From IMG/VR virus record IMGVR_UViG_3300006045_000004, positions 90,180 to 135,897 of that record: a DNA stretch of 45,718 nt; one strand, given 5' to 3'. Below the pieces are notes generated by a model, which saw only the letters and a program-made list of their open reading frames with translations, was not told the origin of the DNA and searched no databases. The translations under genes and the position numbers were made by a program. The stretch comes from a virus. How positions within the stretch are numbered: position 1 is the first letter of the stretch; each line of letters starts with the position of its first letter. Shown here piece by piece: positions 2,180 to 31,264 of this stretch.

Positions 2180-2353
2180 ATGATACTTTATAGAATTAGA
2201 AAATGGATTAGGCAGAATATAGCCAAGAAATGTTTTGATTGTAAGCATTATGACACTTGTAATATGATTCATACAGAATGCTATAATTGGGAATTAAAGA
2301 TTAAGAAAAAGAAGAAACTTAAAGTTAATAAAAATATATATAAAAAAGGATAA
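2180..2353 (+). CDS. 57-aa Cys-rich basic protein
   Basis: Hand-translated MILYRIRKW...CFDCKHYDTC...C...KKG; below the ORF-track cutoff. Confidence 0.45.
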   Translation: MILYRIRKWIRQNIAKKCFDCKHYDTCNMIHTECYNWELKIKKKKKLKVNKNIYKKG

Positions 2354-2417
2354 TGGTCTAAGGGGAGGACATATGCCTGAAGAGCATAGTGTGGGAGTTC
2401 GAATCTCTCTTATCCTA
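2347..2417 (+). tRNA. tRNA-Phe(GAA)
   Basis: AGGATAA/TTATCCT acceptor, TATGC-CTGAAGA-GCATA, TTCGAAT T-loop. Confidence 0.9.
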
Positions 2418-2420
2418 TAA

Positions 2421-2493
2421 GGGGTCGTAGCTCTAACGGAAGAGCATTTGCTTTGCAAGCAAAGGGCTATGGGTTCGAATCCCATCGATTCCA
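2421..2493 (+). tRNA. tRNA-Ala(TGC)
   Basis: Cloverleaf with G3.U70; TTTGC-TTTGCAA-GCAAA. Confidence 0.93.
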
Positions 2494-2500
2494 TTTTATT

Positions 2501-2575
2501 AGGTCGTTAGCTCAGTCTGGACAGAGCATTGGACTTTTAATCCATGTGTCAGGGGTTCAAATCCCTTACGACCTG
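2501..2575 (+). tRNA. tRNA-Lys(TTT)
   Basis: AGGTCGT/ACGACCT acceptor, loop CTTTTAA. Confidence 0.93.
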
Positions 2576-2582
2576 TTCATAT

Positions 2583-2656
2583 TCCCCTATAGTGTAGTCT
2601 GGATATCACAGGAGACTTCTAATCTCTTTACCTTGGTTCAAATCCGAGTAGGGGAG
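2583..2656 (+). tRNA. tRNA-Arg(TCT)
   Basis: TCCCCTA/TAGGGGA acceptor, loop CTTCTAA. Confidence 0.92.
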
Positions 2657-2673
2657 CTTAATAAAAAAAGTAG

Positions 2674-3057
2674 GTGATTAAAATAAACTTATTAAAACAA
2701 TTAAAGAAAATAAAACTTCCAGTTGATGGATATAATGTATTTAGTGCTACTATTATTAATGGTGAAGACTATGAAATACAAATAGAATTCCCAGAAATAA
2801 CAGAAATTTTATATAAATTATCAGAAGATATATCAGATGAAGAAAGAGAAAAACTTTGGGAAGAATCTAATAAGATTTCTGAAGAACGAGCATTAGAATT
2901 TGCTAAAGCAATTGGTGCTGAGGATGAATATTGTTGGTGCGAGCATGATTATCAAGGTTTACTTGATATCCGTTTTGGTAAGTGTGAGTTTAATTGTTGT
3001 GGTGATGAAGATATTGTTGATATTGATTTAGATGAAGAAGATTTATTATTTGATTGA
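2674..3057 (+). CDS. acidic hypothetical protein
   Basis: 127-aa ORF between tRNAs; the listed GTG start lies inside the SD, so the true start is uncertain. Confidence 0.6.
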   Translation: MIKINLLKQLKKIKLPVDGYNVFSATIINGEDYEIQIEFPEITEILYKLSEDISDEEREKLWEESNKISEERALEFAKAIGAEDEYCWCEHDYQGLLDIRFGKCEFNCCGDEDIVDIDLDEEDLLFD

Positions 3058-3065
3058 TTGGTATA

Positions 3066-3083
3066 AAGGGGCATAAGCCCCTT
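3066..3083 (+). terminator. GC-rich hairpin (terminator or processing signal)
   Basis: AAGGGGC-ATAA-GCCCCTT between ORF end and tRNA-Gly. Confidence 0.4.
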
Positions 3084-3088
3084 GTATT

Positions 3089-3178
3089 GCGAGGTTGGTG
3101 TAATAGCAGCATAACTCCCTTCCATGAGTTATTACTCGGAGACAGGAGACGATAGGGGTGCAATTCCCCTACTTCGCA
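3089..3178 (+). tRNA. tRNA-Gly(TCC) with 19-nt BHB intron (3125-3143)
   Basis: GCGAGGT/ACTTCGC acceptor; central helix CTTC/GGAG, bulges CA|T and AC|A. Confidence 0.88.
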
Positions 3179-3187
3179 TTTATATTA

Positions 3188-3261
3188 TGGCATTTAATTC
3201 AGCTTGGTAGAATACCTCGTTTACACCGAGGAAGTCGCAGGTTCAAATCCTGCAATGCCAA
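3188..3261 (+). tRNA. tRNA-Val(TAC)
   Basis: TGGCATT/AATGCCA acceptor, CCTCG-TTTACAC-CGAGG. Confidence 0.92.
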
Positions 3262-3366
3262 TTGACCGTTGTTTCGTTTAATTTCTTACGGTCAAATTTT
3301 TCAGAGGTTTTTGTTTGTGGGTTTTCATCTATTCTTTTCCCACAACAAAAAATAATGTTGATTATT

Positions 3367-3834
3367 ATGATAAAAACTAAATATGGAAATGCAAAAATAA
3401 ATGATGATGGATATTATGTAATAACATCAAGAAAAGAAGGTTTTCATAATAAAAAATTATCTCGTTTGGTTTGGGAAGATTATTGGGGTTGTGAAATTCC
3501 AATTGGTTATATTATTCATCATATTGATGGTTGTAAAACTAATAACGATATAACTAATTTAGTATGTTTATCTGATTATAGGCACAAACAACTACATCAG
3601 GTTGGAAGATTACATACCGAGAAAACTAAAAAATTAATTTCTAAAAATTCAAGAGTTGAAAATAAAGGTTTGTTTGGTTCGACTGGTGCTACTTTAAGTA
3701 ATGGTATTATAGCTGAAAACAAACCGTGGATGTGCAGAATAAGGTATAATAAATATACTACTCATATTGGGTATTATAGTGATTTTGTAACATGTGAGGT
3801 AATATATAAGTTAGTATTAAAAGAAATATTTTGA
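3367..3834 (+). CDS. HNH homing endonuclease with C-terminal AP2-like DNA-binding domain
   Basis: IHHIDGCKTNNDITNL...H HNH motif; start probably ATG 3367 or 3355, since the upstream part of the tracked ORF is hairpin sequence. Confidence 0.8.
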   Translation: MIKTKYGNAKINDDGYYVITSRKEGFHNKKLSRLVWEDYWGCEIPIGYIIHHIDGCKTNNDITNLVCLSDYRHKQLHQVGRLHTEKTKKLISKNSRVENKGLFGSTGATLSNGIIAENKPWMCRIRYNKYTTHIGYYSDFVTCEVIYKLVLKEIF

Positions 3835-3905
3835 GAGGAATTGGTCTAAAAGTATGATATGATGTTTGGAACATTGTGAAGAAGGGGCAGTACCTTCATT
3901 CCTCA
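3835..3905 (+). tRNA. tRNA-Pro(TGG), atypical T-loop
   Basis: GAGGAAT/ATTCCTC acceptor, TGATG-TTTGGAA-CATTG, T-arm GAAGG-GGCAGTA-CCTTC. Confidence 0.8.
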
Positions 3906-3914
3906 TTTAAATAG

Positions 3915-4217
3915 GTGATAATAATGACAGAATTTCCATTTACTAAAGAAGAAATGAAAAAATTTGATGATATATTTAAAAAGAAAAAACAATTTCATGA
4001 TGATTGTATAGAAGCACAAAAAATTGCTATCTTTATAAAAAATTATGCTGATAATCTTAATATGAATTATGCAGTTAGATGTAATCATGGTGAAGATTTA
4101 GGTGAGTGGATAGATTATCTTTATGCTGATAAACAATTTGTTGAAGCTAAAAACTCTTACAATGCTTTGAAAAGAATGTATTATGAAAAGCAAGGTTGGG
4201 AATATTATGATGATTAA
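3915..4217 (+). CDS. hypothetical protein
   Basis: 100-aa ORF with AGGTGA SD; likely ATG start at 3924. Confidence 0.6.
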   Translation: MIIMTEFPFTKEEMKKFDDIFKKKKQFHDDCIEAQKIAIFIKNYADNLNMNYAVRCNHGEDLGEWIDYLYADKQFVEAKNSYNALKRMYYEKQGWEYYDD

Positions 4218-4479
4218 ATGGAAAATTTTAATAATTTTTCTAATAATTATTAGTTTTATATTAGTTGGATTAAATACTATAAGTGGAGTTGATGAAGATT
4301 ATAATCAACCTTCTTTTATTGAGCCAACAGAAGAAATTGAAGAGAATGAATATTCTATTTGTAATAAAGAATATACTGGTGTAAAACCAGTACCTTGGCA
4401 CAATATCCGTTCGGAAAAGTGTGTTGTTGTTAATGGTGAGAGTAGTAATAGGACAATTTGTATGAAAGATACTTTGTAG
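4183..4479 (+). CDS. small membrane-anchored/secreted protein
   Basis: N-terminal hydrophobic stretch ILIIFLIIISFILVGL. Confidence 0.55.
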   Translation: MKSKVGNIMMIKWKILIIFLIIISFILVGLNTISGVDEDYNQPSFIEPTEEIEENEYSICNKEYTGVKPVPWHNIRSEKCVVVNGESSNRTICMKDTL

Positions 4480-4579
4480 GGCAATTGGTGTAATAGAAAC
4501 ATTAGGGATTCCAGACAAGTGGGGTATATATCTGCTTGGGAAAAACCCCTGGCTGTCTGTGCGACTCAGGCATTGCCCA
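4479..4579 (+). tRNA. tRNA-Trp(CCA) with 30-nt BHB intron (4515-4544)
   Basis: GGGCAAT/ATTGCCC acceptor; helix TTCC/GGAA, bulges AG|A and AA|A; T-loop TGCGACT. Confidence 0.85.
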
Positions 4580-4586
4580 TTAAATA

Positions 4587-4658
4587 GCTCCGTTGGTGTA
4601 TTTGGAAACATCATGGTCTTTCGAACCGTGGCGACGGGTTCAAACCCCGTGCGGAGCA
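4587..4658 (+). tRNA. tRNA-Glu(TTC)
   Basis: GCTCCGT/GCGGAGC acceptor, loop CTTTCGA. Confidence 0.92.
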
Positions 4659-4681
4659 TTTTTTATTTTTTGTAATTTTAT

Positions 4682-4701
4682 GAAACATTTAAATACTATG
4701 A
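4682..4701 (+). promoter_or_regulatory. BRE-TATA promoter
   Basis: GAAACATTTAAATACTATGA. Confidence 0.7.
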
Positions 4702-4781
4702 ATGACATAATATTATATGTAGCATTTAATTTTTTTTGCTATATGAGAGATTTTTAATAATTAATTAATAGGAGGTAAACC

Positions 4782-5825
4782 ATGAAAAATTATATATTAT
4801 TAATAACAATAACAATTTTATTATTATTTTCAATATCTACTGTTGTAGCAACAGATAATATTGGTGTTTTGGAAAACGGAACTAATGTTACACTAAACGA
4901 AACACATAATGTTAGTGATGTTATAAATATAGATGGGGATGATTATTATGTTGAGAGTATAATAAAAGAACCGTCAGAAATTATTGGATATGAGGATGGT
5001 TCTAAGATAGTTACTAAACCAGCTTATAACGAAAGTAAAGTTGAAGATTATTTAGTACAAAGTGGAACAGGTACTCAACCTTGGGGTAATTTTTTACCAC
5101 CAAATGGAAAAAATACAACTTACACATATAATGTATTTAGTTCAGCTACATATGGAAAATATGGAATGGGATATATAGATATTTATTTTAGTGGAAGTTT
5201 TCAAGGTGGAGGATTTTATGGTAGAATTGCAGATAGGTTTTATTTCCAATATTATTTAGATGAAAATGGTAATGTAAAATATATACCAATGAATAATATA
5301 TCAGTCTTTAACTTAAAAACTCATGTACAAACACTTTATAATGTAAAATTGGTTAATGATATACTTATTAGTCTTACAGAAGATGGTATATTAACTGTCA
5401 CTTTTGATATGACTGGAGCTAATGTTGCTCCTACTGGCTCTAATCCTGGACGATTTTATATACAAGGATATTTTTTAAACTTAGCTCAAAGAACTGTAAT
5501 TATTGAACATGATGAAGAGTTTTATTATGAGCAGATTCCTATATATTCAGAGGAAAAGATAATTTACATATTAAAAAAAGTACAAGTTAAAACAATAAAT
5601 GAAACTAATGAAGATAATGAGACTAATAAAGGTCAAGTTTTAAATTATAAAAAACCTATGAAAAGTTCTAATAAAGTTACATTAACAGAGGGATTAAAAC
5701 CACCAGTTAAAAATTCAAAAAACAATAAAATTAATATCGTTAAAGCAAATATGAAACAAACTGGATTACCAATTAGTATTTTTATATTATTATTGTTAAT
5801 AATTCCATTAAGAAGATTTAAATAA
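4782..5825 (+). CDS. cell-surface adhesin-like protein with signal peptide and C-terminal MxxTGxP-TM-basic anchor
   Basis: Signal peptide ending VVATD; C-term MKQTGLP + hydrophobic helix + RRFK; GGAGGT SD. Confidence 0.75.
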   Translation: MKNYILLITITILLLFSISTVVATDNIGVLENGTNVTLNETHNVSDVINIDGDDYYVESIIKEPSEIIGYEDGSKIVTKPAYNESKVEDYLVQSGTGTQPWGNFLPPNGKNTTYTYNVFSSATYGKYGMGYIDIYFSGSFQGGGFYGRIADRFYFQYYLDENGNVKYIPMNNISVFNLKTHVQTLYNVKLVNDILISLTEDGILTVTFDMTGANVAPTGSNPGRFYIQGYFLNLAQRTVIIEHDEEFYYEQIPIYSEEKIIYILKKVQVKTINETNEDNETNKGQVLNYKKPMKSSNKVTLTEGLKPPVKNSKNNKINIVKANMKQTGLPISIFILLLLIIPLRRFK

Positions 5826-5856
5826 TCTTCTTTTTTATTTTTTTTTGAAAATCAAT

Positions 5857-5878
5857 GCAAACATTTATATATAATGAA
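5857..5878 (+). promoter_or_regulatory. BRE-TATA promoter of tRNA cluster
   Basis: GCAAACATTTATATATAATGAA about 25 nt upstream of tRNA-iMet. Confidence 0.7.
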
Positions 5879-5896
5879 GATATAATATAATAACAT

Positions 5897-6079
5897 ACTG
5901 GGGTAGAATAGTCTGGTCTATTTCGGTGGGCTCATAAATGAGATATAAAAAAGTTTGAGTTAATGTTTGACAAAATATTTTATAAATAAAGTAAAATAAT
6001 AATTTATTGATAAGTTTTTAGTTACTACATATCTCATTGAGATACCCACAGAGCAATGGTTCAAATCCATTCCTCAGTA
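5897..6079 (+). tRNA. initiator tRNA-Met(CAT) with 107-nt BHB intron (5937-6043)
   Basis: A1-U72, GGG/CCC anticodon stem, purine11-pyrimidine24; helix CTCA/TGAG, bulges TA|A and AT|A, intron stem ATGAGATAT/ATATCTCAT. Confidence 0.87.
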
Positions 6080-6174
6080 TTTTTACCATACAGATAATTA
6101 TTTGGGTAAATAAGTGGTTTATGGGATTGATTATCCTTGGGTTTCCATACCAATCAATAATCCTAAAATCAAAT

Positions 6175-6247
6175 GCTACGGTAGTTCTAACGGCAGAACA
6201 GGGCTCTTGTAAAGCCACGGTTGGGGGTTCAAATCCCTCCTGTAGCT
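6175..6247 (+). tRNA. tRNA-Thr(TGT)
   Basis: GCTACGG/CTGTAGC acceptor, loop CTTGTAA. Confidence 0.9.
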
Positions 6248-6260
6248 TTCATTATGGTAG

Positions 6261-6452
6261 GTGATATTTTTGAGTGATGTTAAGAAAAAAAATAGTTGTT
6301 ATAGAGATGATGTTACTTGTGAGAAAGTGATGGAGTTGGAAAGACAAGGTTTTTCTATTAAAGAAAGTGCTGAAGAGCTTGGTTGTTGTAAGTCCACGAT
6401 TACAAGTAGAAGAAAAGATTTTTATAATAAAAGATTATTAGAAGAGAATTAG
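6261..6452 (+). CDS. small helix-turn-helix DNA-binding protein
   Basis: GFSIKESAEELGCCKSTITSR HTH pattern. Confidence 0.65.
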   Translation: MIFLSDVKKKNSCYRDDVTCEKVMELERQGFSIKESAEELGCCKSTITSRRKDFYNKRLLEEN

Positions 6453-6454
6453 TT

Positions 6455-6541
6455 GGCAAGATGGGAGAGTGGTTTATTCCGTAGGTTTGCTATGCCTATG
6501 TTATCGAGAGGTAACCGCAGGTTCGAATCCTGCTCTTGTCG
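6455..6541 (+). tRNA. tRNA-Ser(GCT)
   Basis: Long variable arm, G73, loop TTGCTAT. Confidence 0.9.
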
Positions 6542-6545
6542 TTTT

Positions 6546-6617
6546 GACCCATTGGTGTAGTGGTTATCATATTTGGTTGTCAGTCAAATGAAAGGGGTTC
6601 AATTCCCCTATGGGTCG
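6546..6617 (+). tRNA. tRNA-Asp(GTC)
   Basis: GACCCAT/ATGGGTC acceptor, G73, loop TTGTCAG. Confidence 0.9.
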
Positions 6618-6620
6618 TTT

Positions 6621-6741
6621 GGCGGTGTGCCAGAGTTTGGTTTATTGGTTCGGTCTTGAATTAATGATATGCTCATTCATATCATAACAAGATAACCGAT
6701 GGTATTAGTAGTACACAGAGGTTCAAATCCTCTCACCGTCG
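6621..6741 (+). tRNA. tRNA-Ser(TGA) with 33-nt BHB intron (6661-6693)
   Basis: Helix CTTG/CAAG, bulges AA|T and AT|A, long variable arm, G73. Confidence 0.87.
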
Positions 6742-6753
6742 TTTTTTCATTAA

Positions 6754-6838
6754 TGGAGGATGCCTGAGTGGTTAAAAGGGCAGGGCTTAAGACCCTGTGT
6801 TCGTAGGAGCTTCGTGGGTTCGAATCCCATTCCTCCAA
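6754..6838 (+). tRNA. tRNA-Leu(TAA)
   Basis: CAGGG-CTTAAGA-CCCTG, long variable arm. Confidence 0.92.
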
Positions 6839-6864
6839 TTCATATAAAATATAGAGGTGAATTT

Positions 6865-7074
6865 ATGAGATATAATGTAAGTAAAAGTATAGTTAAAAAA
6901 ATAGGTAAAGAAGGTGGAATCAACAGAGTATCACCTAAAGCTATTGATTTAGTACAGGAAGAAGCGACTAAATATGTTTTGAAGCTTTTAGCATGGGGTC
7001 AGACTTATGCTGGACATGCTGGTCGCAGGACTGTTAGAAAAGAAGATATTATTATGGCTCTTGAAGACCATTAA
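6865..7074 (+). CDS. archaeal histone (HMf/HMt family), 69 aa
   Basis: RVSPKA...HAGRRTVRKEDI histone-fold signature; GAGGTGA SD 4 nt before ATG 6865. Confidence 0.9.
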   Translation: MRYNVSKSIVKKIGKEGGINRVSPKAIDLVQEEATKYVLKLLAWGQTYAGHAGRRTVRKEDIIMALEDH

Positions 7075-7090
7075 TATTTTTTTATTTTTT

Positions 7091-7172
7091 TGGGGATTGC
7101 TCGATTGGAGAAGAGGGGAGGTTTAGAACCTTCTGTGGTAGCACTTAGGGAGTTCGATTCTCTCATCCCCAA
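7091..7172 (+). tRNA. tRNA-Leu(TAG)
   Basis: TGGGGAT/ATCCCCA acceptor, GGAGG-TTTAGAA-CCTTC, long variable arm. Confidence 0.85.
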
Positions 7173-7194
7173 TTCATTATAGAGGTGATAATTT

Positions 7195-7515
7195 ATGTCA
7201 GAAGAATATAGCGTAGAGGAAATTGGTGAAGATTTTAATAAAATAACTAATATTCTTAACAAACATAATAAGATAATAGCATATAGAGAACATGAAAGTA
7301 GGTTATTAGGTAATGGAGAATTAATGGATAATGCAGAAGACAATGAGGTTACAAGACCTTATTCGATTTATAAAAGTAATGAGTTATCAGCTAATTATTT
7401 GTTAAAGTATATGGAAAAGGTTGTTCAACCTGCTTTACAAGAGTATGTTAGTGAGTATATTAATCATTTTTCTAAGGAAGCTAATAGAGATGCTGAAAAA
7501 GATTTGTTCAGATGA
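7195..7515 (+). CDS. hypothetical protein
   Basis: GAGGTGA SD, 106-aa ORF. Confidence 0.65.
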   Translation: MSEEYSVEEIGEDFNKITNILNKHNKIIAYREHESRLLGNGELMDNAEDNEVTRPYSIYKSNELSANYLLKYMEKVVQPALQEYVSEYINHFSKEANRDAEKDLFR

Positions 7516-7585
7516 GTAGTATGGTGTAGTGGTAGCACTCCAGGTTGTGGTCCTGATAGCTCGGATTCGATTTCCGATATTACTC
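7514..7585 (+). tRNA. tRNA-His(GTG) with encoded G-1
   Basis: G-1:C73 pair, loop TTGTGGT. Confidence 0.9.
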
Positions 7586-7592
7586 TTTTATT

Positions 7593-7666
7593 GGGAGTGT
7601 AGCTCAGTAGGTAGTAGCGTGGGGCTGTTAACCTCAAGGTCGAGGGTTCGAATCCTTCCACTTCCG
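7593..7666 (+). tRNA. tRNA-Asn(GTT)
   Basis: Cloverleaf, loop CTGTTAA, G73. Confidence 0.92.
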
Positions 7667-7670
7667 TTTG

Positions 7671-7745
7671 TGGAGCATAGCTCAGTTTTGGTAGAGTACC
7701 AGTCTGATATACTGGCGGTCGTGGGTTCGATTCCCTCTGCTCCAA
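7671..7745 (+). tRNA. tRNA-Ile(GAT)
   Basis: TGGAGCA/TGCTCCA acceptor, CCAGT-CTGATAT-ACTGG. Confidence 0.92.
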
Positions 7746-7765
7746 TTTTTTACAGGTGATAAATT

Positions 7766-8434
7766 ATGAAATATCCAAAAACTTTACATTTACCTTTTAG
7801 TCAATGTGTTAATAAAGATGACCGTGTTGCTGATGATATTAGTAATATTATTGGTAAAGAGATTGTTATTACTGAAAAGCTTGATGGAAGTAATGTTTTT
7901 CTTGGTGATGATATTATTCATGGTCGTTCAGATAAAAGTAAGCTTGGTGAATGGAATCATAATTTTTATTGGGATAAAAGAATAAATGTATTACAAATTA
8001 ATTTAGGTGTAAGAAAGTTATTAGGTGCTGGTAATGGTTTCTTTTTTGAGAATCTTAATGCTGTTCATTCAATTGAATATCCACAACTAAATGATTATAT
8101 CCATTTGATTAATATTACTACTGATGATGGTTGGTTTACAAAGTGGTTTTTTGTTGAAGAACAGGCAGATATATATGGTTTTCCTACTGTTCCTAAGTTA
8201 TTTGAAGGTGTTTGTTGGACTGAACAACAGTTAAAAGGTACTATTGGTAAGTTAATGAGTGAGGATTCTGTTTATGGTGGAAAGAAAGAAGGTGTTGTTG
8301 TTAGAACGACTGATGCTTTTCCGAAAGAAGATTTCGATAAGAATGTGTTTAAATTTGTTAGAGAAAACCACAACCAAACAGACAGTAATTGGAAAAGAGA
8401 GTGGAAGAAAGCAGAGTTGATACAAAGTGAATGA
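7766..8434 (+). CDS. RNA ligase family protein (Rnl2-like adenylyltransferase domain)
   Basis: KYPKTLHLPFS, TEKLDGSN, EGVVVR, KFVRENH motifs. Confidence 0.85.
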   Translation: MKYPKTLHLPFSQCVNKDDRVADDISNIIGKEIVITEKLDGSNVFLGDDIIHGRSDKSKLGEWNHNFYWDKRINVLQINLGVRKLLGAGNGFFFENLNAVHSIEYPQLNDYIHLINITTDDGWFTKWFFVEEQADIYGFPTVPKLFEGVCWTEQQLKGTIGKLMSEDSVYGGKKEGVVVRTTDAFPKEDFDKNVFKFVRENHNQTDSNWKREWKKAELIQSE

Positions 8435-8674
8435 TGAGATAGATGTATTGATAGTGTTTATTATTTTAATTATAGTTTTAATAGGAGCTGTTATGAGTGT
8501 ATGGATATGATAATGTTATTGGTAGGAGTAGTTCGCCGATTTATGAGATTAGGTGTGCTAATGTTGGTAAGTTGAATGAGTATCAGATTGAGTTTTTTGA
8601 TTGGATTCATCGTATTAGTTTAGAAAGAGAAGAGACTATAGATGAACAATAAAAATTTAGATATATTTAATTAA

Positions 8675-8749
8675 GGGCATGTGACCAAGTCTGGTTAAGG
8701 TGCTTGACTCATAATCAAGAAATCGCAGGTTCGAATCCTGCCATGCCCA
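8675..8749 (+). tRNA. tRNA-CAT, non-initiator (elongator Met or Ile2)
   Basis: GGGCATG/CATGCCC acceptor, CTTGA-CTCATAA-TCAAG; Met versus Ile2 not resolvable by eye. Confidence 0.88.
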
Positions 8750-8765
8750 TTTAGGAGTTGTTTAA

Positions 8766-8957
8766 ATGGTTGATACAAGTAGATATTATATTAAGAAAGT
8801 TAATAATAAATTTGTTATTAAAGATAGAAGAGGTAATCATAAAAATGTTGCTACTTTTACTATTATAGATACTCTTCAGAGTGAAGATATTTATAAAGCA
8901 ATTGATTTTTCTGAATTGATTTGTAATTATTTGAATAGTAAATTTTCTAATGTATGA
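8766..8957 (+). CDS. hypothetical protein
   Basis: AGGAG SD, 63 aa. Confidence 0.55.
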   Translation: MVDTSRYYIKKVNNKFVIKDRRGNHKNVATFTIIDTLQSEDIYKAIDFSELICNYLNSKFSNV

Positions 8958-9028
8958 GTTAAGTTTATATATGATAAAATATATAATATATATATGTTTT
9001 TGTTAGATTACATATATATAAAAAGTTT

Positions 9029-9100
9029 ACTCCTGTAGTCTAACGGAAAGATTCCTGCCTTTGGAGCAGGAGTTGGTGGGTTCAAGTCCTCCCAGGAGTA
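9029..9100 (+). tRNA. tRNA-Gln(TTG)
   Basis: A1-U72 ACTCCTG/CAGGAGT acceptor, CCTGC-CTTTGGA-GCAGG; TATA box at 8964. Confidence 0.9.
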
Positions 9101-9118
9101 TTTAAAAAGGTTTTTATT

Positions 9119-12069: not shown

Positions 12070-12699
12070 ATGGGTTATGGTGTTATTTATTGTAGGAAGT
12101 TTCCTAATAATAAAGTTTATATAGGACAAACAATACAAAAACCACAATATAGGTGGTCACAAGCTAAGTGGGTTGCTAAAAGAACCAATTCAAATGAACT
12201 TATTTATCGTGCATTAAGAAAATATAATTATCAAACTGAAGATATAATACTATATAAAGCAAAAACAGAATGGGAACTAAACTTTGCAGAAGCACTAATA
12301 ATAAAAATGTACAACAGCACAAATCATAAACTTGGATATAATATAAAGTTAGGTGGGAATAGTTCACCACACTCAAAAGAAACAAAAGAAAAATTATCAA
12401 AATTAAGAAAAGGAATAAAATTTAGCAATGAACATAAAAAAAATTTATCAAAAGCTAAAAAAAATGTAAAATTTAGTCAAAATCATAAAACAAATATAGG
12501 AAAAGGTCATACAAAAAAATTATATAAAATTAAAAAAAACTTTTTAGGTTTTTATAAGTCTTATTTCTTTAAAAGAAATAAAAAAAGACAATGGTATTTG
12601 GTAATAAATTATAATAAAAATAAAACATATATTGGTTCATACATAGACCCATTAACTCCACAAATAATTTTTGATTTAATAAAAGATGAAATATATTAA
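12070..12699 (+). CDS. GIY-YIG homing endonuclease with NUMOD3-like repeats and AP2-like C-terminus
   Basis: GVIY...VYIGQT..R, GYN, HSKETKEKLS repeats; TATA at 12039 suggests a leaderless mRNA. Confidence 0.88.
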   Translation: MGYGVIYCRKFPNNKVYIGQTIQKPQYRWSQAKWVAKRTNSNELIYRALRKYNYQTEDIILYKAKTEWELNFAEALIIKMYNSTNHKLGYNIKLGGNSSPHSKETKEKLSKLRKGIKFSNEHKKNLSKAKKNVKFSQNHKTNIGKGHTKKLYKIKKNFLGFYKSYFFKRNKKRQWYLVINYNKNKTYIGSYIDPLTPQIIFDLIKDEIY

Positions 12700-15716: not shown

Positions 15717-16655
15717 GTGGGGAAGTTTATAAACCTCCACACTCATTCTGAATATAGTCTTCAAGATAGTGTTGTCAAAATATCAGATTTGGTAGAGAAA
15801 ATTAAAAGCTTAGGTCAGAATGCCGTTGCTATAACTGACCATGCTAATGTATCTGCTTATTTTGAATTTGAAGAGGAATGTTTAAAACAAAATATAAAAC
15901 CCATATTTGGGTGTGAATGGTATTGTAATTTTACTTATGGTGAAAAAAGTCAAAACAGACATCACTTAGTAATGTTAGCTAAAAATAATGAAGGTGTTAA
16001 AGAAATTCAACAACTAATGGTTGCTGCTAATGAAAATAAATATTACAAACCTATTGTTTCTTATGAAGAATTATTTAAAAATACACCAAAAAATGTTGTT
16101 GTAACATCTGCTTGTTCATTAGGTTCTGTTGGACAAGCATTAATTGAAAACGATTATCAAAATGCATTATCAATTGCAGAAATGTTTAAGAATGTTTTTG
16201 ATGATTATTATTTAGAATTACAAATGCATCCACAATATGAAGACCAACATAAAGTTAATAATGGTATTTTAAATATAAGCAAAGAATTAAACCTTCCTCT
16301 TACAGTATCTTCTGATATTCATATATTGAATAAAGAAGATGGGTCTGTTCGTGATATTTGGAAAGCTATAAGTTGGAAAAATAGTTTTGAAAATGTTCAC
16401 GAAAAATCTCCAACATTGAAAAGTAATGCTATATTTAATGATGATGGAATTTTAGAATTAGCAGAAGAAACAAACTTTGATATAAACAAAGTTAAAACTG
16501 CTATTAAAAATACAAAAAAAATATCTGATATGTGTAATGCTGAATTAATTAAATATGATAAATACATACCAGAATTTAATAAACATAATGAGATTTTAAA
16601 ATTTGATTTCTTTAAAGAAAAAGAAAAAAAACAAAAAAAATTAAGTGATTTTTAA
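15717..16655 (+). CDS. dnaE: DNA polymerase III alpha, stand-alone PHP domain subunit with C-terminal PIP box
   Basis: LHTHSEYSLQD, AITDH, GCE, HHLVMLAKN, SACSLG, YLELQ, SDIH; ends KQKKLSDF. Confidence 0.9.
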   Translation: MGKFINLHTHSEYSLQDSVVKISDLVEKIKSLGQNAVAITDHANVSAYFEFEEECLKQNIKPIFGCEWYCNFTYGEKSQNRHHLVMLAKNNEGVKEIQQLMVAANENKYYKPIVSYEELFKNTPKNVVVTSACSLGSVGQALIENDYQNALSIAEMFKNVFDDYYLELQMHPQYEDQHKVNNGILNISKELNLPLTVSSDIHILNKEDGSVRDIWKAISWKNSFENVHEKSPTLKSNAIFNDDGILELAEETNFDINKVKTAIKNTKKISDMCNAELIKYDKYIPEFNKHNEILKFDFFKEKEKKQKKLSDF

Positions 16656-19069
16656 TGGATAACAAAAAATTTCTAAAAAAACTTTGTAATATTGGAGCAA
16701 ATAAAAAAAATATTGATTTATCTGACAAAGTTTACAAAAAAAGATTTGAAGAAGAATATAATCTTATAATAGATAATGATTTAGAAGATTTTTTTCTTAA
16801 CACAAGCTTTATAATTAATAAAATAAAAGATAAAGGAATTTTTGTATCTAATGGCAGAGGTAGTAGTGGAGGAAGCTTACTGCTTCACTTACTTAACATT
16901 ACTCATGTAGACCCAATTAAATATAACTTATCATTCTCTCGTTTTTTAAACAAAGCAAGAGTAGAAACAGGAAATCTTCCAGATGTAGATAGTGATATAC
17001 CTACATCAAAAAGAAGAGAAGTTCTTGAAATGGTTAAAAATGATTTTGGTCATGACCGTGTTTATGAAATAGTTAATTTTAATAGAGTCAGTCCAAAAGT
17101 AGCATTTAAAGATATATCAAGAGCATTAGGAATTGATTTTGCAGAAGTAAATAATTTAACAAAACAAATTAACAAAGATGATTCATTGGAAGATGTATTA
17201 AAAATGGATATTGTTAAGAGTTTTTTAGAAAAATATCCTGATGTAGAAATGTTTTTACCTAAGATAAATGGATTAGTTCGTGCATGGGGTCGTCATGCAG
17301 GAGGATTAGCCATATTTCCACAACCTATATGGAATTATATGGGTACTGTTAAAACAGGTGATTATTATTGTACTTCATTAGATAAATCATTAGAAGGAAA
17401 AGGATTTATTAAAAATGATTTACTTGGAATAGAGGTTACAGATGTTATTTCTGACACATTAGATATGATTAATGAACAAATACCTGATAATTATGAAGAC
17501 CCAAAAGTTTTTGAAACTATATCAAAATATCCATTAGGTATATTTCAACTTCAAAATAACTCTGGTATGAAGTATTTGAAAGAAACTAATGTTGTTGATT
17601 TTGAAGATTTAGTAGCAAGTATTGCTATTATTCGTCCTGGTCCTTCTCAAGCTGGTGAAAAGGATAAATATATTGAATTTAAAGATAATCCTGATTTAGT
17701 TTCTTATGAGCATCCTGATTTAGAACCTGTATTATCTTCTACTAATGGTATTATTACTTATCAAGAACAGGTTATGGGTATTTCTAAGGTGTTTGGTGGT
17801 TTTGATGATGTTCAAGCTGATTTTCTTAGAAAAGCTATTGCTAAAAAGAAACCTGAAATGTTAGTGGAGTTTGAAGGAAAATTTAAAGATGGTGCTATGG
17901 GTAGATATGAAGATGAACTTGTTAATAGATTATGGGATATGATTAATGGTTGTGGAGACTATTTATTTGTTCTTTCTCATAGTTTGTTTTATGCTATGTT
18001 GGCTTATCAATGTGGTTGGTTGAAAACTTATTATCCAAAAGAGTTTTTGATTTCTTTGGCTAATCATTCTAATGATGTAAAGAGAGTTAGTGTTTTTAAC
18101 GAGATTAAAGAAAGGAATATTAATGTTCTTAATCCACATATAAATAAAAGTAAAGAGAAAACTTATCTTGATGATGAAGGAAATATTGTTTTAGGTTTTT
18201 CTTCTGTTAAAGGTATTGGTGTTAAAGCTATTCAATCTATTATATCTAAGCAACCTTATAATTCTTTTAATGACTTTATGAGTAGGAGAACTCCAAGACA
18301 AGTTAATAGTAAAGTTGTTAAAGCTTTGATTGAAGCTGGTGCTTTTGATAAGTTTGGTGACAGAAGAGATGATTTATATCATCGTGTTAGTGATGAGGAG
18401 TATCATGAATGGAGTATTCAGGAAATGTTACTTCGTGAATATAAGAAGCTTAAATTAAGTCCTTCACAAAACCTTATAGATTACTATAAAGATGAAATTA
18501 CAGGTATAGAAGTGTTTCCACTTAATAATATTCCAGATGAAGATATTGAAGAATTATATATACAAGGACTTGTTAATGATTTTACAGTTAAAGAAACATT
18601 TAACATACTTGAAATAAGTGATGGAACAACTACTGCTGGTCTTTTTGTAGACGATATAGTTAAAGAAAGATATTTTGCAGAATTAAACGAAATTGGAAAA
18701 CCTGTTCTAATAAAATGTAGCCAATACAATAATAATTTATCACTTAGTTTTATCATTGATTTAGAAAATAAGGAAAACATTAAATACAAACGACAACTAA
18801 GATATATTAAAAATGAATATGAACATAAGTTAGAAGCTTTAAATGACCGTAATGATGGGTTAGAATATAGTGTAATTAAAAAACTTAGATACTTTAAGAG
18901 TAAAAAAGGAACTAACTGTGTTAGAATAGATGGATATCATGGTAAAGATGTTGAAATTATGAGTTGTTTATCTAACTTTGGACAACCATATCCAAATATG
19001 ATAGCTGGTGATATTATTAAATATAGAGTTCGTAATAAACCTTTTAGTGATATTTATGGCTGCTTATAA
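16655..19069 (+). CDS. dnaE: DNA polymerase III alpha (family C) catalytic subunit
   Basis: GRGSSGGS, LPDVDSD, GRHAGG, KNDLLG, IFQL, YQEQVM, LKTYYP, HhH VKGIG. Confidence 0.93.
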   Translation: MDNKKFLKKLCNIGANKKNIDLSDKVYKKRFEEEYNLIIDNDLEDFFLNTSFIINKIKDKGIFVSNGRGSSGGSLLLHLLNITHVDPIKYNLSFSRFLNKARVETGNLPDVDSDIPTSKRREVLEMVKNDFGHDRVYEIVNFNRVSPKVAFKDISRALGIDFAEVNNLTKQINKDDSLEDVLKMDIVKSFLEKYPDVEMFLPKINGLVRAWGRHAGGLAIFPQPIWNYMGTVKTGDYYCTSLDKSLEGKGFIKNDLLGIEVTDVISDTLDMINEQIPDNYEDPKVFETISKYPLGIFQLQNNSGMKYLKETNVVDFEDLVASIAIIRPGPSQAGEKDKYIEFKDNPDLVSYEHPDLEPVLSSTNGIITYQEQVMGISKVFGGFDDVQADFLRKAIAKKKPEMLVEFEGKFKDGAMGRYEDELVNRLWDMINGCGDYLFVLSHSLFYAMLAYQCGWLKTYYPKEFLISLANHSNDVKRVSVFNEIKERNINVLNPHINKSKEKTYLDDEGNIVLGFSSVKGIGVKAIQSIISKQPYNSFNDFMSRRTPRQVNSKVVKALIEAGAFDKFGDRRDDLYHRVSDEEYHEWSIQEMLLREYKKLKLSPSQNLIDYYKDEITGIEVFPLNNIPDEDIEELYIQGLVNDFTVKETFNILEISDGTTTAGLFVDDIVKERYFAELNEIGKPVLIKCSQYNNNLSLSFIIDLENKENIKYKRQLRYIKNEYEHKLEALNDRNDGLEYSVIKKLRYFKSKKGTNCVRIDGYHGKDVEIMSCLSNFGQPYPNMIAGDIIKYRVRNKPFSDIYGCL

Positions 19070-19197: not shown

Positions 19198-19935
19198 ATG
19201 AGATTAAGTAAGTCTAAAATTAATACTTTTCAGCAATGTCCTCGGAAATTTCGTTATATTTATGTAGACGAATTACCAAGAGCTGAACCAGATGATGAGT
19301 CTCCATTAACTATTGGTACAGAGATACATAATATATTTGAAGAGTTTCTTAAAGATGTTGATTTAGAATGGTTTAGTAGTATAGGTAGTGCTGGTCAACT
19401 TAATATTATTAAAGAGTATGATATTGATAATAAGTATATAAGTCATTTGAGAAATTTTTTAGTTTTTCTTAATGATATTATAGATGATGGATATAATATT
19501 TTAGGTTGTGAACCTCATTTTGAATCAAGTGAATTAAATTTACATGGTTATTTAGATTTGGTTCTTGAAAAGGATGGTAAGCTTACTGTTATTGATTATA
19601 AAACTGGTAAAGCAAAGGCAATTACAGAGTTTCGTCTTGAGCTGATTTATTATGCTCTTCTTGCTCAAAAAGAATTAAATTTACCTGTTGAGATGGTTGG
19701 TATTTTCTTTTCTAAAACTGGACATTTAAAGTTAGCTAATTTTATTGAAGAGCCAGATAAAGGGGCTTGGATAAGTTATGAGGATGTGCAGTCTGCTGTT
19801 CTTTATTTGAAAGAAGTTGAGAGGAAGATAGAAGAAGAAGATTTTAGATTCAAAACGAATTGGCTTTGTGATTATTGTGATTATCAAACTGAATGTAGAG
19901 AAGAGGGATATCAAGAGTATGGTGTGTTTGAATGA
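19198..19935 (+). CDS. Cas4/RecB-like PD-(D/E)XK exonuclease
   Basis: CPRKF, GTEIH, GYLD, IDYKTG, CDYCDYQTEC. Confidence 0.88.
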   Translation: MRLSKSKINTFQQCPRKFRYIYVDELPRAEPDDESPLTIGTEIHNIFEEFLKDVDLEWFSSIGSAGQLNIIKEYDIDNKYISHLRNFLVFLNDIIDDGYNILGCEPHFESSELNLHGYLDLVLEKDGKLTVIDYKTGKAKAITEFRLELIYYALLAQKELNLPVEMVGIFFSKTGHLKLANFIEEPDKGAWISYEDVQSAVLYLKEVERKIEEEDFRFKTNWLCDYCDYQTECREEGYQEYGVFE

Positions 19936-20504
19936 GTTTAATAACTTATGAATGGGATTATGAAAAAATGATTGATTTGTTAGAAAATCATTTTAAATAC
20001 TATACCAAGTTAGATAATGATTTAAAAAATTATTTAATAAAAGAAGTTGTAATGAACCGAGCTATGTTTCATAGAGATAAAAATAATGAAACAATAAATC
20101 ATTGTAAAATGTGTGGTAAGTGTTGTCGTAAACAAAGGTGTTTTAATCTTGATGAGAATAACAAATGTATTGAGCATGGTACTTCAAATTATTCTTTTCT
20201 TTGTTCAGAATATCCATATATGGAAAGGGAAGATGGTGAGGGTTTTGATGTTTATGTTGATACAGATTGTTATTTTAGTCGTAAGGTTTTAATAGATAGA
20301 TGTGAAGCTATATTTCGTATTTCTATTGAAGCTAAGGAAAAAGTTGTTAATCCTACAATTTCTAATTTAACTTATACTTTTGAGGAGCTACAAAGAGAAC
20401 TTAGAGATATGATGTCGGATAATATTGCTGAAATGTTAAGAAATGTTAGTTTTGAAAATTTAGAAAATGTAGAGTTTATAGGTGATGATGATGAAGAAAG
20501 TTGA
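19932..20504 (+). CDS. YkgJ/CxxCxxCC Fe-S/Zn-cluster protein
   Basis: CKMCGKCC...C..L..NNKC..H....C..YP. Confidence 0.75.
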   Translation: MSLITYEWDYEKMIDLLENHFKYYTKLDNDLKNYLIKEVVMNRAMFHRDKNNETINHCKMCGKCCRKQRCFNLDENNKCIEHGTSNYSFLCSEYPYMEREDGEGFDVYVDTDCYFSRKVLIDRCEAIFRISIEAKEKVVNPTISNLTYTFEELQRELRDMMSDNIAEMLRNVSFENLENVEFIGDDDEES

Positions 20505-21474
20505 GTTAATGGTATTTCCTAAAAGATTTAGAATGAATTTTAATAAAAATAGTTCTGAACTTAAAAGTATTATTAAACTTAATGGTAGTAGGAAGGAAAT
20601 GTATTTATCTGTTTATGATTTTAATGATGAAGTTGTTAAAGAAAATATTATTATTGATAAAATTTTTATTGATTTTGACCCAGAAAAAAATGATGAAGGT
20701 GAAATCATAGATGAAGAAAAACCTTTTGAAAATTGTAAAAAAGTAGCTAAATATCTTAAAGAAAAAGGTGTAAGTTTTTATGTTAGATTTTCAGGTAGGG
20801 GTTTTCATTTATATATAAGAACATTACCACATAATTATGAACATAATATTAATTCTAAAATTAAACAATATGTTAATGATTTAATGAATACTACTGATGC
20901 AACTTGTGACCGTCAGGTTGTTGGTGATTTAAGAAGAATGAGTCGTATTATAAATACAATAAACAAAAGGACAAATCTTTATTGTATTCCATTAACATAT
21001 GATGCTTTAATGAATTGTTCTTATGATAAAATAAAAGATGTTGCTGAGAAAAAAAGTTTTAGTGGTTCTGATAATATTAATTATGGTTATGCTGTTGATT
21101 TGTCAGATGTTGTTGTTCAAAAAGCACACAACTATATATATAATAAACAACAAAATATAAATCACAGTTTGAGTAATACTCAAATACCATTACCTCCGTG
21201 TTTATCAATTTTATTGAATAAGGCAGATATCAACTACAGAGAAAGATTTATGATTATAGTGTATGCAAGGGATATGGGATATACTGTTGATGAAGTAGAG
21301 AATTTTATAGAGGAAAATCTGTCAGAAGAGAAGTCTTTTCATTGTTTGCATGAAGAAAATCAGGTTCAATATTTATTTGATAGAGAAGATATCTTGTTTC
21401 CTGAATGTAATAGCTTAAGAAATGAAGGTTTTATTTGCACAGAAGAGTGTAATGGTGTTGATTTATACATTTAA
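20482..21474 (+). CDS. archaeo-eukaryotic primase, PriS catalytic domain fused to PriL-like C-terminal domain
   Basis: FIDFD, FSGRGFH, D..R.SR...T.N; then PPC, R.RF, PEC..L..EG.C...C. Confidence 0.85.
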   Translation: MMMMKKVELMVFPKRFRMNFNKNSSELKSIIKLNGSRKEMYLSVYDFNDEVVKENIIIDKIFIDFDPEKNDEGEIIDEEKPFENCKKVAKYLKEKGVSFYVRFSGRGFHLYIRTLPHNYEHNINSKIKQYVNDLMNTTDATCDRQVVGDLRRMSRIINTINKRTNLYCIPLTYDALMNCSYDKIKDVAEKKSFSGSDNINYGYAVDLSDVVVQKAHNYIYNKQQNINHSLSNTQIPLPPCLSILLNKADINYRERFMIIVYARDMGYTVDEVENFIEENLSEEKSFHCLHEENQVQYLFDREDILFPECNSLRNEGFICTEECNGVDLYI

Positions 21475-21479
21475 TAAGG

Positions 21480-22163
21480 ATGAGGTGTATGAGTAATATT
21501 AAAAAGGTTTTGGTTGATTATCGTGAAGTTTCTAATGGTATAGCTCAACAAAATTTCAAACAACAAATTATTAGTCATTTTGGTGAAGATAAAGTTTTTA
21601 TTGAAAGTCTTCCTATTGGTGATTTTGTTGTTATTCTTAATGATGGAACTGTATTTGTTGTTGAAAGAAAAGAAGACCTTGATTGGATTAGTTCTTGTAT
21701 TAAAAGAAGAGTTCAAAGTCAAGTTTTAAAGATGGTGGAAGCTTTTGACCATCGTTTTGTTATAATAATAGGAGACTATAAATCAATACAAAATAACAGA
21801 CAATATGTGAAGTTTAGTAAAAAACAATGGATATCCAATATGATTTCATTAGGTATAAGGTATAAAACTCCTGTTTATATGGTGGAAAGTAAGTTGGATT
21901 TCTTAAAAGCTATTGATAGTATAGCTAAGATGATTGATAGAGAAACTGAACCATTAGAAAAACCAAAAAATATAAAGAATACTGGTAATCCTAAAACAGA
22001 TATTTTGGGTGCAGTTCCTGGTATTGGTAAGAAAAAAAGTGAAAAACTTTTGTTAAAATTTGGTAGTATTAAAAATATAATTAATTCTTCGGCAGATAAG
22101 ATATCAGAAGTGAATGGTGTGAGTAAAAATAATGCTGAAGAAATATTGCGGTGGTTTAATTAA
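21480..22163 (+). CDS. XPF/ERCC4 structure-specific nuclease with HhH2 domain
   Basis: VDYRE, LPIGDF, VERK; VPGIGKK HhH. Confidence 0.9.
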   Translation: MRCMSNIKKVLVDYREVSNGIAQQNFKQQIISHFGEDKVFIESLPIGDFVVILNDGTVFVVERKEDLDWISSCIKRRVQSQVLKMVEAFDHRFVIIIGDYKSIQNNRQYVKFSKKQWISNMISLGIRYKTPVYMVESKLDFLKAIDSIAKMIDRETEPLEKPKNIKNTGNPKTDILGAVPGIGKKKSEKLLLKFGSIKNIINSSADKISEVNGVSKNNAEEILRWFN

Positions 22164-22431: not shown

Positions 22432-23109
22432 ATGATGGATTTAAAAATTCAACATTTAAAACTTTTGGTAGATGCAAGACAAACATTATTAAATGGTAAA
22501 AATGCAAATACAGCAAGATTAAATTACCTAAGAAGAAAAGGTAATATAAGTGAAGAAGGTGCTAATTTTCTTCAAGAACAAGGTATTGAACCGTTTGAAG
22601 AACCACTTTCTAAGTTTCGAGTAAAGATTATTGATATTCTTAATTTTATACCTGTATATCAGGATTATTTAAAGGATATTAGTGGTGTGTCTGCTTTTGA
22701 TTGTGCTAATTTAATTATACTTGTAGAGGATATTGAAAGGTTTGGTTATTTAAATCAATTTAAAGCATACTGTGGAGTTACACCTGTTGTTGAGTGTCAT
22801 GGTAGGGTACATAAGATGAGAAAAGGTGTTGATTATTCTGATTGTATTGTTATTGGTGATGAAAGAGCTAAGATAAAAAGTGTTTCTTATAATGAAAGAA
22901 TTAAAATTTTAATGAGTAAAATTATAAATCAATTAATTAAGTATAATGAAGATTATATGGATGCTTATAATGTTTTGTGGGAGCAAGAAAGAGTTAAGGC
23001 ATCTAATATAACTAAAAAGCATGTAAATAATCGTGTTAAAAGAAAGTTAGCTCAGAAATTTTTGAAAGAGTTTTATATACAATGGAAAGAATTAAATAAA
23101 GGTGTTTAA
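22432..23109 (+). CDS. IS110-C-terminal/Nop-like domain protein lacking the DEDD RuvC domain
   Basis: YLKDISGVS..DCANLI...DIERF....QFKAYCGVTP, YN..IK, H...R..RKL...FL. Confidence 0.65.
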   Translation: MMDLKIQHLKLLVDARQTLLNGKNANTARLNYLRRKGNISEEGANFLQEQGIEPFEEPLSKFRVKIIDILNFIPVYQDYLKDISGVSAFDCANLIILVEDIERFGYLNQFKAYCGVTPVVECHGRVHKMRKGVDYSDCIVIGDERAKIKSVSYNERIKILMSKIINQLIKYNEDYMDAYNVLWEQERVKASNITKKHVNNRVKRKLAQKFLKEFYIQWKELNKGV

Positions 23110-24992: not shown

Positions 24993-25277
24993 GTGCCGAG
25001 TGAAGAACAGAAAGTATATATGGATTTGGTAAGTGATGCATTTAATGATGATAAGGTTAAGCAGTTATTGGTTTTAGTTCAGCTTGATGATGATTATGCT
25101 CGTAATAATGGAACTATTGGTTTTGCTGAGGGTGAGAATAAGATGATTATTGAGTTTAATGATTCTAATACACAGGATGCTGATGATTTAATTGATTCTT
25201 CTTTATCTGCTATTGATGGTCATGAGAATAAATATCCTTTGTTAACAAGGATAAAGAATAAAATTAAGGGCTTATAG
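24993..25277 (+). CDS. hypothetical protein
   Basis: 94-aa ORF; 3' end overlaps tRNA-Arg. Confidence 0.55.
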   Translation: MPSEEQKVYMDLVSDAFNDDKVKQLLVLVQLDDDYARNNGTIGFAEGENKMIIEFNDSNTQDADDLIDSSLSAIDGHENKYPLLTRIKNKIKGL

Positions 25278-25341
25278 TATAATTAGGATAGTATAGAGAG
25301 CTACGAACTCTTTGATGGGGGTTCAAATCCCTCTAAGCTCA
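25268..25341 (+). tRNA. tRNA-Arg(ACG)
   Basis: GGGCTTA/TAAGCTC acceptor, GAGAG-CTACGAA-CTCTT, GGGGG-TTCAAAT-CCCTC. Confidence 0.85.
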
Positions 25342-31190: not shown

Positions 31191-31264
31191 GCTGGTGTAG
31201 GGTAGTTCGGCGACTCATCTGGTTGCAGACCAGAATCACGCAGGTTCAAATCCTGCCACCAGCT
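31191..31264 (+). tRNA. tRNA-Cys(GCA)
   Basis: GCTGGTG/CACCAGC acceptor, U73, TCTGG-TTGCAGA-CCAGA. Confidence 0.92.

Follow-up and report, generated by a model that had tools for sequence, protein, structure and literature searches.

By the accepted view, family C DNA polymerases and the beta clamp belong to bacteria, and PCNA belongs with PolB or PolD to archaea and eukaryotes. One described archaeal virus, Methanobacterium virus PhiF1 (host Methanothermobacter), has a DnaE that is split at the boundary between its PHP and palm domains (ORF58/ORF57, annotated in GenBank MK994522 as "putative DNA polymerase III DnaE superfamily protein"), and an archaeal virus having a family C polymerase of two subunits and an intact PHP site is already visible in that annotation. 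A DnaE split at the same boundary is encoded in the DNA considered here, the last 45.7 kb (45,718 nucleotides; G+C content ~27%) of a 135.9-kb virus record in IMG/VR with an estimated completeness of 85% (IMGVR_UViG_3300006045_000004); this whole stretch is referred to as the window. What is new is a conserved, lineage-specific C-terminal tail on the PHP subunit, of the PCNA-interacting peptide (PIP) type. The most plausible reading is that this tail inserts in the PCNA of the host and would tether the PHP proofreader and the polymerase to an archaeal clamp. A literature search returned no paper that joins DnaE or PHP with a PIP box or with archaeal viruses; an earlier description in Medvedeva et al. 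2023 is possible.

The two subunits are encoded on the plus strand by two open reading frames (ORFs). ORF1 (15717–16655; GTG start, TAA stop) specifies a PHP subunit of 312 aa, and ORF2 (16655–19069; ATG start) a catalytic subunit of 804 aa that comprises palm, thumb, fingers, helix-hairpin-helix (HhH), and C-terminal regions. Direct reading bears out the original prediction that these are separate ORFs meeting in a TAATG overlap (16653–16657): the TAA stop of ORF1 (16653–16655) and the ATG start of ORF2 (16655–16657) have one A in common, and the frame of ORF2 is −1 with respect to that of ORF1. A Shine-Dalgarno (SD)-like AGTGAT for ORF2 (16644–16649) sits inside the codons of the two residues between the Leu and the Phe of the tail. 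The break falls exactly at the PHP/palm boundary, with ORF1 aligning to residues 5–285 and ORF2 to residues 321–904 (E = 1e-87) of the E. coli Pol III alpha subunit.

It is very improbable that the two ORFs are really one gene that was divided by an assembly error or by pseudogenization, or that is routinely read through by programmed frameshifting. The junction does adjoin runs of A8 and T5, and a −1 slip on GAT-TTT-TAA would enter ORF2. However, a TGA at 16646–16648 closes the ORF2 frame 9 nt before the ORF2 ATG, and slippage on the A-runs therefore cannot join the ORFs, which rules out a −1 frameshift at those runs. Only a slip on TTTTTA beside the stop could join them in the window, and such a slip is impossible in relatives whose two ORFs are separated by an entire gene or by a stop-containing spacer of 110 nt. 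The start of ORF2 is moreover conserved among relatives as M-[DSN]-N-K-[KED]-[FY]-[LI], and the split recurs in more than 100 clusters from many independent assemblies with varied junction DNA and frame offsets.

A protein search with the PHP subunit yields 130 matches at E ≤ 1e-10, nearly all of which are stand-alone PHP proteins of ~298–312 aa on contigs of up to 134 kb. These stand-alone proteins account for the clusters just mentioned, and the split is also present in PhiF1 and in the IMG/VR viruses designated G002–G006. At every locus examined, a polymerase ORF of 580–830 aa comes directly after the PHP gene. The closest cellular bacterial homologs are single chains of 1150–1230 aa, and a tree rooted with these homologs places every split PHP protein in a single clade (branch value 99). 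Because independent assemblies with different junction DNA have it, the split is not a homopolymer artifact; it is genuine, as had been proposed, and old within the virus family. The junction takes three forms among the nearest relatives of the window: (i) a stop/start overlap in the window and in loci L006 and L004, (ii) an intact gene for a 236-aa GIY-YIG homing endonuclease that separates the PHP and polymerase genes in L002 (10936–11646) and L003 (5646–6356), and (iii) a 110-nt spacer with its own SD in L178, which precedes an intein-containing polymerase gene.

The C-terminus of the PHP subunit reads ...FFKEKEKKQKKLSDF-stop. A Lys-rich linker, EKEKK (residues 301–305; 16617–16631), comes after the last helix (residues 290–302) and leads into the tail QKKLSDF (residues 306–312; 16632–16652), which ends at the stop codon, and this part of the earlier description is confirmed. 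The five nearest PHP proteins, which make up the sub-clade of the window and are 50–100% identical to the protein of the window, are designated group A. All five carry such a tail immediately before the stop, namely QKKLSDF, QKRLSDF, QVKLGDF, QVSLESF, and QLTLGDF. Over the final 24 columns of the aligned group A proteins only Q306, L309, and F312 are invariant, and the linker varies in length and sequence as do the neighboring residues. By chance, a protein of this virus genome would end in Q..[LIM]..[FYW] with a frequency of 6.5e-4, and in the strict form Q..L..F with a frequency of 1.2e-4.

The tail overlaps the translation signals of the next gene, and its conservation could in principle lie in the DNA. 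By this account the tail has no function in the protein and is kept by the constraints on the junction (ribosome-binding site, spacer, stop/start overlap, and A/T-rich run) together with the recent common ancestry of the five sequences. The SD of the downstream gene (AGTGAT, GGTGAT, GGGGAT, or GGAGAG) does indeed supply the codons of both residues between L and F, F is always TTT and serves as the spacer, Q is always CAA, and the independent clusters number only five. Tail-less relatives have C-termini that look SD-shaped as well, e.g., GAT GAG GAT TGG TGG in L093. Nevertheless, Q and L are invariant although they lie outside the SD element, in proteins whose neighboring residues and linker length vary at 50–75% overall identity, and the Leu codon varies synonymously between TTA and TTG. 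The tail is kept in all three junction contexts, including those in which a homing endonuclease gene follows (L002) or the polymerase has an SD of its own and begins 110 nt farther on (L178). An origin in DNA constraints alone is accordingly improbable. Since Q and L are outside the SD, the Leu codon varies, and the motif persists with other downstream contexts, the conservation of the tail is read here as selection on the peptide. As a separate observation, the C-terminal residues of PHP proteins (GD, SD, and ES; in other clades EE, GDW, and DEDWW) are partly dictated by the ribosome-binding site, which occupies 16644–16649 in the window and the corresponding position in L006, L002, L004, L178, and L093.

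Two types of clamp-binding motif come into question. The bacterial motif is Qx2[L/M]x0-1F, as in QTSMAF of the E. coli epsilon subunit and in residues 920–924 of alpha (PMC3642679), while the PIP box is taken as Qxx[L/I/M]xx[aromatic][aromatic]. Archaeal PIP boxes are usually located at the extreme C-terminus, and the RNase HII of A. fulgidus binds PCNA without the second aromatic residue (PMC3504372). In the viral tail, Q306, L309, and F312 occupy PIP positions 1, 4, and 7. The motif consists of the last seven residues and is on a flexible segment, with AlphaFold confidence (pLDDT) values of 56–63 as compared with >90 in the domain. In each of the five tails L and F are separated by two residues, which is not the bacterial beta-clamp spacing. 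On the basis of the Qx2Lx2F spacing and the RNase HII precedent, the tail is therefore of the PIP type in a known truncated form.

The last 45 residues of the PHP subunit, with the five-row group A alignment, were modeled in complex with the PCNA of Methanobrevibacter smithii (Swiss-Prot PCNA_METS3). The complex scored 0.73, compared with 0.01 for the best of three controls, and the score was 0.00 when an unrelated protein replaced PCNA; the mark applied to such scores is reached by 58 of 80 solved complexes and by 2 of 110 mismatched pairs, counts that are rough because an alignment of the analysts' own was used. Contact agreement in the runs was at least 91%, and the pLDDT of the partner was at least 44. 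Tail residues 303–312 contact PCNA residues 40–47, 123–126, 217–218, and 235–242, which comprise the hydrophobic pocket, the interdomain connector loop, and the C-terminal strand and thus correspond to the canonical PIP site. The model shows that the tail resembles a PIP box and supports PCNA binding without showing it; binding and an effect on processivity are plausible. A complex model with host PCNA had been proposed as a check of the PIP box on the PHP subunit; with the M. smithii protein, the conserved PIP-type sequence is modeled in the canonical pocket, and the likeness seen in the model is not itself binding.

A functional short linear motif could also have a partner other than host PCNA, such as the catalytic subunit of the same enzyme, an unrecognized viral clamp or clamp loader, or a different replication protein of the host. 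That Q, L, and F are conserved at the protein level says only that something binds the tail, and most relatives among the methanogen viruses lack it, so the partner may be lineage-specific. A similar tail is found on a second protein of the virus (392 aa), the record is incomplete, and the search for a T4-type clamp (gp45 family) had no informative positive control. Against such a partner, the spacing and the terminal position are those of archaeal PIP boxes, and the modeled tail enters the canonical pocket of PCNA and scores nothing with the unrelated protein. Searches with PCNA_N, PCNA_C, and DNA_pol3_beta gave zero matches across the 136-kb record, and PCNA_N gave zero in G002–G006 as well; the PCNA of the host is therefore the candidate if the enzyme uses a clamp. 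Taken together, a different partner is unlikely, though it deserves more weight than a tail maintained by the junction DNA.

Several points weigh against PCNA as the partner and against the tail as a PIP box. The second aromatic residue (position 8) is absent, with the protein stopping at position 7, and the SD of the next gene encodes the two residues between L and F, which leaves the tail partly constrained at the DNA level. The tail is present in only five protein clusters, and the sister groups that lack it, which are much larger, likewise consist of methanogen viruses; these and PhiF1 indicate that this polymerase family can work in archaea without a canonical PIP tail. As regards the model, its pass may reflect a memory of the many solved PIP-PCNA complexes, the fold of the partner itself is uncertain (pLDDT <50), and the PCNA used is that of M. 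smithii, which may not be the true host's. Finally, in a record that is 85% complete, a divergent clamp encoded by the virus could have escaped detection.

The tree unites the five tailed proteins in one clade (branch value 96) beside two tail-less clades, with PhiF1 outside. Tail-less proteins have endings such as ...EFDKLFEEMM and ...SVGDW. A single later gain, specific to one lineage, is the simplest explanation of the tail. It had been suggested that the split arose in order to free a C-terminus for the PIP box, and that homologs should share both features. The split is indeed found throughout the viral clade, but the tail is confined to the five members of group A; as the split occurs in a much larger tail-less clade and the tailed sequences are derived, it did not arise to make room for the tail. 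No further tailed members were found in a single-protein scan of viral contigs, in a scan of genome contigs (which returned bacterial cellular DnaE and one tail-less viral contig), or in a metagenome scan (best match 45% identical and of the tail-less type). The genome and metagenome scans for the tailed clade also revealed no archaeal provirus.

The tail-less group with PHP proteins of ~298 aa could be mistaken for bacterial phages. This is ruled out by matches to the pseudomurein-binding repeat (PMBR) in four of five related IMG/VR genomes (114–155 kb), three of them above the cut-off. The modules of these tail-less relatives are syntenic with that of the window, and the metagenome-assembled genome labels "Bacilli" and "Alistipes" on two tail-less contigs are probably due to mis-binning.

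A second PIP-type tail, QINLDKF-stop, is found on the 392-aa protein, which has no Pfam or PHROG match. Its gene (plus strand; G000:C1:42803–43981, the same as L009:6804–7982) lies 46 kb upstream of the window, in an early region beside TelA- and ArdC-like genes. Two homologs end in QMNLNEF followed by KLSRF and in KKKMVDF. This protein may be a second PCNA-directed protein of the virus. No other replication protein with a PIP tail was found in the module of the window or of four relatives.

The PHP subunit is assigned to Pfam PHP (PF02811; E = 1.2e-38), aligns with the PHP domain of M. tuberculosis DnaE1, and matches DnaE structures in the PDB at E = 1e-21. An active PHP domain has the signature HHDHEH[C/H]DH (PMC12926913). 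In ORF1 the set is HHDHEHCDH, provided by H8, H10, D17, H42, E67, H83, C133, D200, and H202, and thus contains all nine ligands of an active PHP 3′–5′ exonuclease. These residues are invariant or nearly so among 21 relatives and align with the metal ligands of M. tuberculosis DnaE1, and the metal-ligand motifs are accordingly intact, as predicted from the letters alone. The subunit holds a complete metal site of the exonuclease type and is a putative exonuclease. Its AlphaFold model has a mean pLDDT of 89.7. The globular part spans residues 1 to ~280, and values fall to the 56–63 already given over the final ~40 residues, i.e., the last helix and then the tail. This low-confidence C-terminus fits a flexible linker bearing a short linear motif.

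The catalytic subunit contains DNA_pol3_alpha (PF07733; 3.6e-56), DNA_pol3_finger (PF17657; 2.9e-39), and HHH_6 (PF14579; 2.8e-22). Its catalytic residues D110, D112, and D255, in the motifs PDVDSD and KNDLLG, correspond to E. coli D401, D403, and D555 and are invariant. Family C polymerases are expected to carry an internal clamp motif, Qx2[L/M]x0-1F, between the HhH and OB domains. In five bacterial DnaEs this motif (GQ(I/F/L)(D/S)(M/L)F: GQIDMF, GQFSLF, GQLSLF, and similar) is borne by a segment of ~40 residues that is absent from all eight aligned viral catalytic subunits. The viral pair thus possesses the PHP domain, the palm, fingers, and HhH regions, and the catalytic Asp residues of family C, and has neither the internal clamp motif nor the single chain. 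QNLIDYY in the catalytic subunit was considered as a second PIP box and rejected, for it corresponds in the alignment to the start of the bacterial DnaE OB region, where ...GHPL..Y is conserved; the true clamp-motif segment lies upstream of that position and is deleted in the viral proteins. On a deeper branch, the catalytic ORF after the PHP gene encodes only ~580–600 aa (L099:4457–6259, L100:3517–5313, and L163:4429–6171), and the C-terminal OB-like region may be missing there or be encoded by a third gene.

These features can be assembled into a stepwise proposal. Two translationally coupled genes give a PHP subunit and a catalytic subunit, and the two would reassemble as a heterodimer, which is suggested by the position of the break exactly at the PHP/palm boundary of single-chain DnaE. 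The catalytic subunit has lost the segment with the bacterial internal beta-clamp motif. Afterwards, in the sub-lineage of the window, the PHP subunit would have acquired the Lys-rich flexible linker ending in Q-x-x-L-x-x-F-COOH. The tail would enter the hydrophobic pocket of host PCNA, such that the proofreader is held on the clamp and the polymerase is held through the proofreader, and this tethering would resemble the way in which E. coli epsilon holds the beta clamp by its own motif. Whether a family C replicase was in this manner rewired onto PCNA, with the beta-clamp motif lost, a PIP box gained by the detached PHP, and the exonuclease subunit turned into a clamp adaptor, is an evenly balanced question.

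The origin of the break appears to be connected with mobile elements. The window carries a free-standing gene for a GIY-YIG-type homing endonuclease (12070–12699, plus strand; PHROG homing-endonuclease matches), a paralog of the L002 junction endonuclease with the C-terminal motif ..DPL..QI(I/V)Y.. in common. Every group A locus has paralogs with this motif at other positions. In PhiF1 (L001:4621–8151, ORF57) and in L178 (5077–5508), an intein is inserted in the catalytic subunit at a conserved GRG|C(S). An endonuclease at the break and inteins nearby mark the split gene as a target of mobile elements, and the break probably arose, or stays open, through mobile-element traffic at this site. 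A further intein is present in the NrdD of L008 (17286–20237); the copies in the window are intein-free.

The virus is a tailed virus of ~136 kb that infects pseudomurein-walled methanogens (Methanobacteriales, probably Methanobrevibacter-like). Its best match in a phage collection is PhiF1, and one 343-aa protein of its genome combines a PMBR, above the Pfam cut-off, with Peptidase_C39 and is, by its domains, a pseudomurein lysin. The lysin, together with the synteny and kinship with PhiF1, points to a pseudomurein-walled methanogen as the host and upholds the earlier assignment to an archaeal virus. The replication module shared with PhiF1 consists of the two DnaE ORFs, a PD-(D/E)XK nuclease, a hypothetical protein, an ERCC4 nuclease, a Transposase_20-like protein, and NrdD. 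In the window, all on the plus strand, the polymerase genes are followed by the PD-(D/E)XK nuclease (19198–19935), a 190-aa ORF, an AEP primase of 330 aa with a PriL-like part (20482–21474), and an ERCC4-HhH nuclease (21480–22163), of which the two nucleases and the primase are assigned by Pfam; the order from 19198 to 22163 is kept in PhiF1 and the relatives.

Further genes of the window are of note in their own right. The 330-aa protein has weak matches to LigD/AEP primase-polymerases and to the eukaryotic/archaeal primase large subunit, and it looks like a fused PriS/PriL-like primase beside a bacterial-type polymerase. A protein of ~225 aa with a weak match to IS110-type Transposase_20 has a fixed position in the module of PhiF1 and all relatives (window 22432–23109; L001:10691–11311; L004:13981–14655; L006:6881–7585), and this constancy suggests a domesticated function and not a mobile element. 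Between 25928 and 28973 the window encodes NrdD (582 aa), a radical-SAM activase (200 aa), and a Mom-family protein (201 aa; E = 6e-34), the last of which suggests DNA base modification. There are 19 tRNA genes, mostly in one cluster (2347–9101; also 25268–25341 and 31191–31264); one ARAGORN call (3088–3179) has an abnormal 2-base anticodon, and an RNA ligase gene (7766–8434) lies within the cluster.

If the proposal is true, the enzyme would be the first of family C known to work with PCNA, and a natural experiment in the swap of a replicase's clamp partner across domains. Two small proteins and PCNA would make a simple system for determining the minimum that couples a polymerase to a foreign clamp, with the tail-less sister lineages of methanogen viruses as built-in comparators. 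The case also bears on the exchange of replication modules between the viruses of bacteria and those of archaea. Its practical interest is modest, in that a compact two-piece proofreading polymerase from mesophilic gut/rumen methanogen viruses could interest enzymologists.

PhiF1 is the nearest described system and differs from the window in several respects. In PhiF1 the PHP subunit is extended at its N-terminus by a uracil-DNA glycosylase domain and the polymerase contains an intein, both of which are absent from the proteins of the window. The PhiF1 ORFs overlap by 80 nt with a +1 offset, whereas those of the window are offset by −1. The PhiF1 PHP protein ends in ...REWLDW and lacks the Qx2Lx2F tail, and identity to the proteins of the window is only ~31%.

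In T4-like phages, polymerase or ribonucleotide reductase genes are split by the insertion of homing endonucleases, a condition known as "genes in pieces". The viral DnaE is similar in that an essential replication gene is present as two cistrons divided at a domain boundary, with a GIY-YIG gene at the break in some relatives. It differs in the polymerase family and the host domain, and the endonuclease is absent in most members, in which the cistrons are directly coupled. By analogy, the T4-like case may serve as a model for the origin of the two-cistron state.

Bacterial DnaE1 enzymes with an active PHP domain (M. tuberculosis DnaE1, PDB 5LEW/7PU7; T. aquaticus, 2HPI) have the same domains, the nine PHP ligands, and the catalytic Asp residues. 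However, they are single chains of ~1180–1220 aa with an internal beta-clamp motif after the HhH, whereas the virus has two chains, a deletion of that segment, and a host with PCNA.

The E. coli epsilon subunit binds the canonical pocket of beta through QTSMAF and so provides Pol III with a second grip on its clamp (PMC3642679). The arrangement proposed for the virus is epsilon-like inasmuch as a separate proofreading subunit would carry the clamp peptide on a flexible segment. Epsilon, on the other hand, is a DnaQ/DEDDh exonuclease unrelated to PHP, and its motif is internal, has the form Qxx[L/M]xF, and binds beta, while the viral tail is C-terminal, has the form Qx2Lx2F, and is proposed to bind PCNA.

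The closest likeness in the tail itself is to the C-terminal PIP boxes of archaeal Fen1, RNase HII, PolB, PolD DP2, and RFC-L, which share with it the extreme C-terminal position, the spacing of the Q, aliphatic, and aromatic residues, and basic residues before the Q. In the complex of A. fulgidus RNase HII with PCNA (3P83; PMC3504372), the PIP box likewise has no second aromatic. The difference lies in the bearer: the known archaeal PIP boxes sit on enzymes of the archaeal/eukaryotic type, and the viral tail on the PHP subunit of a family C polymerase.

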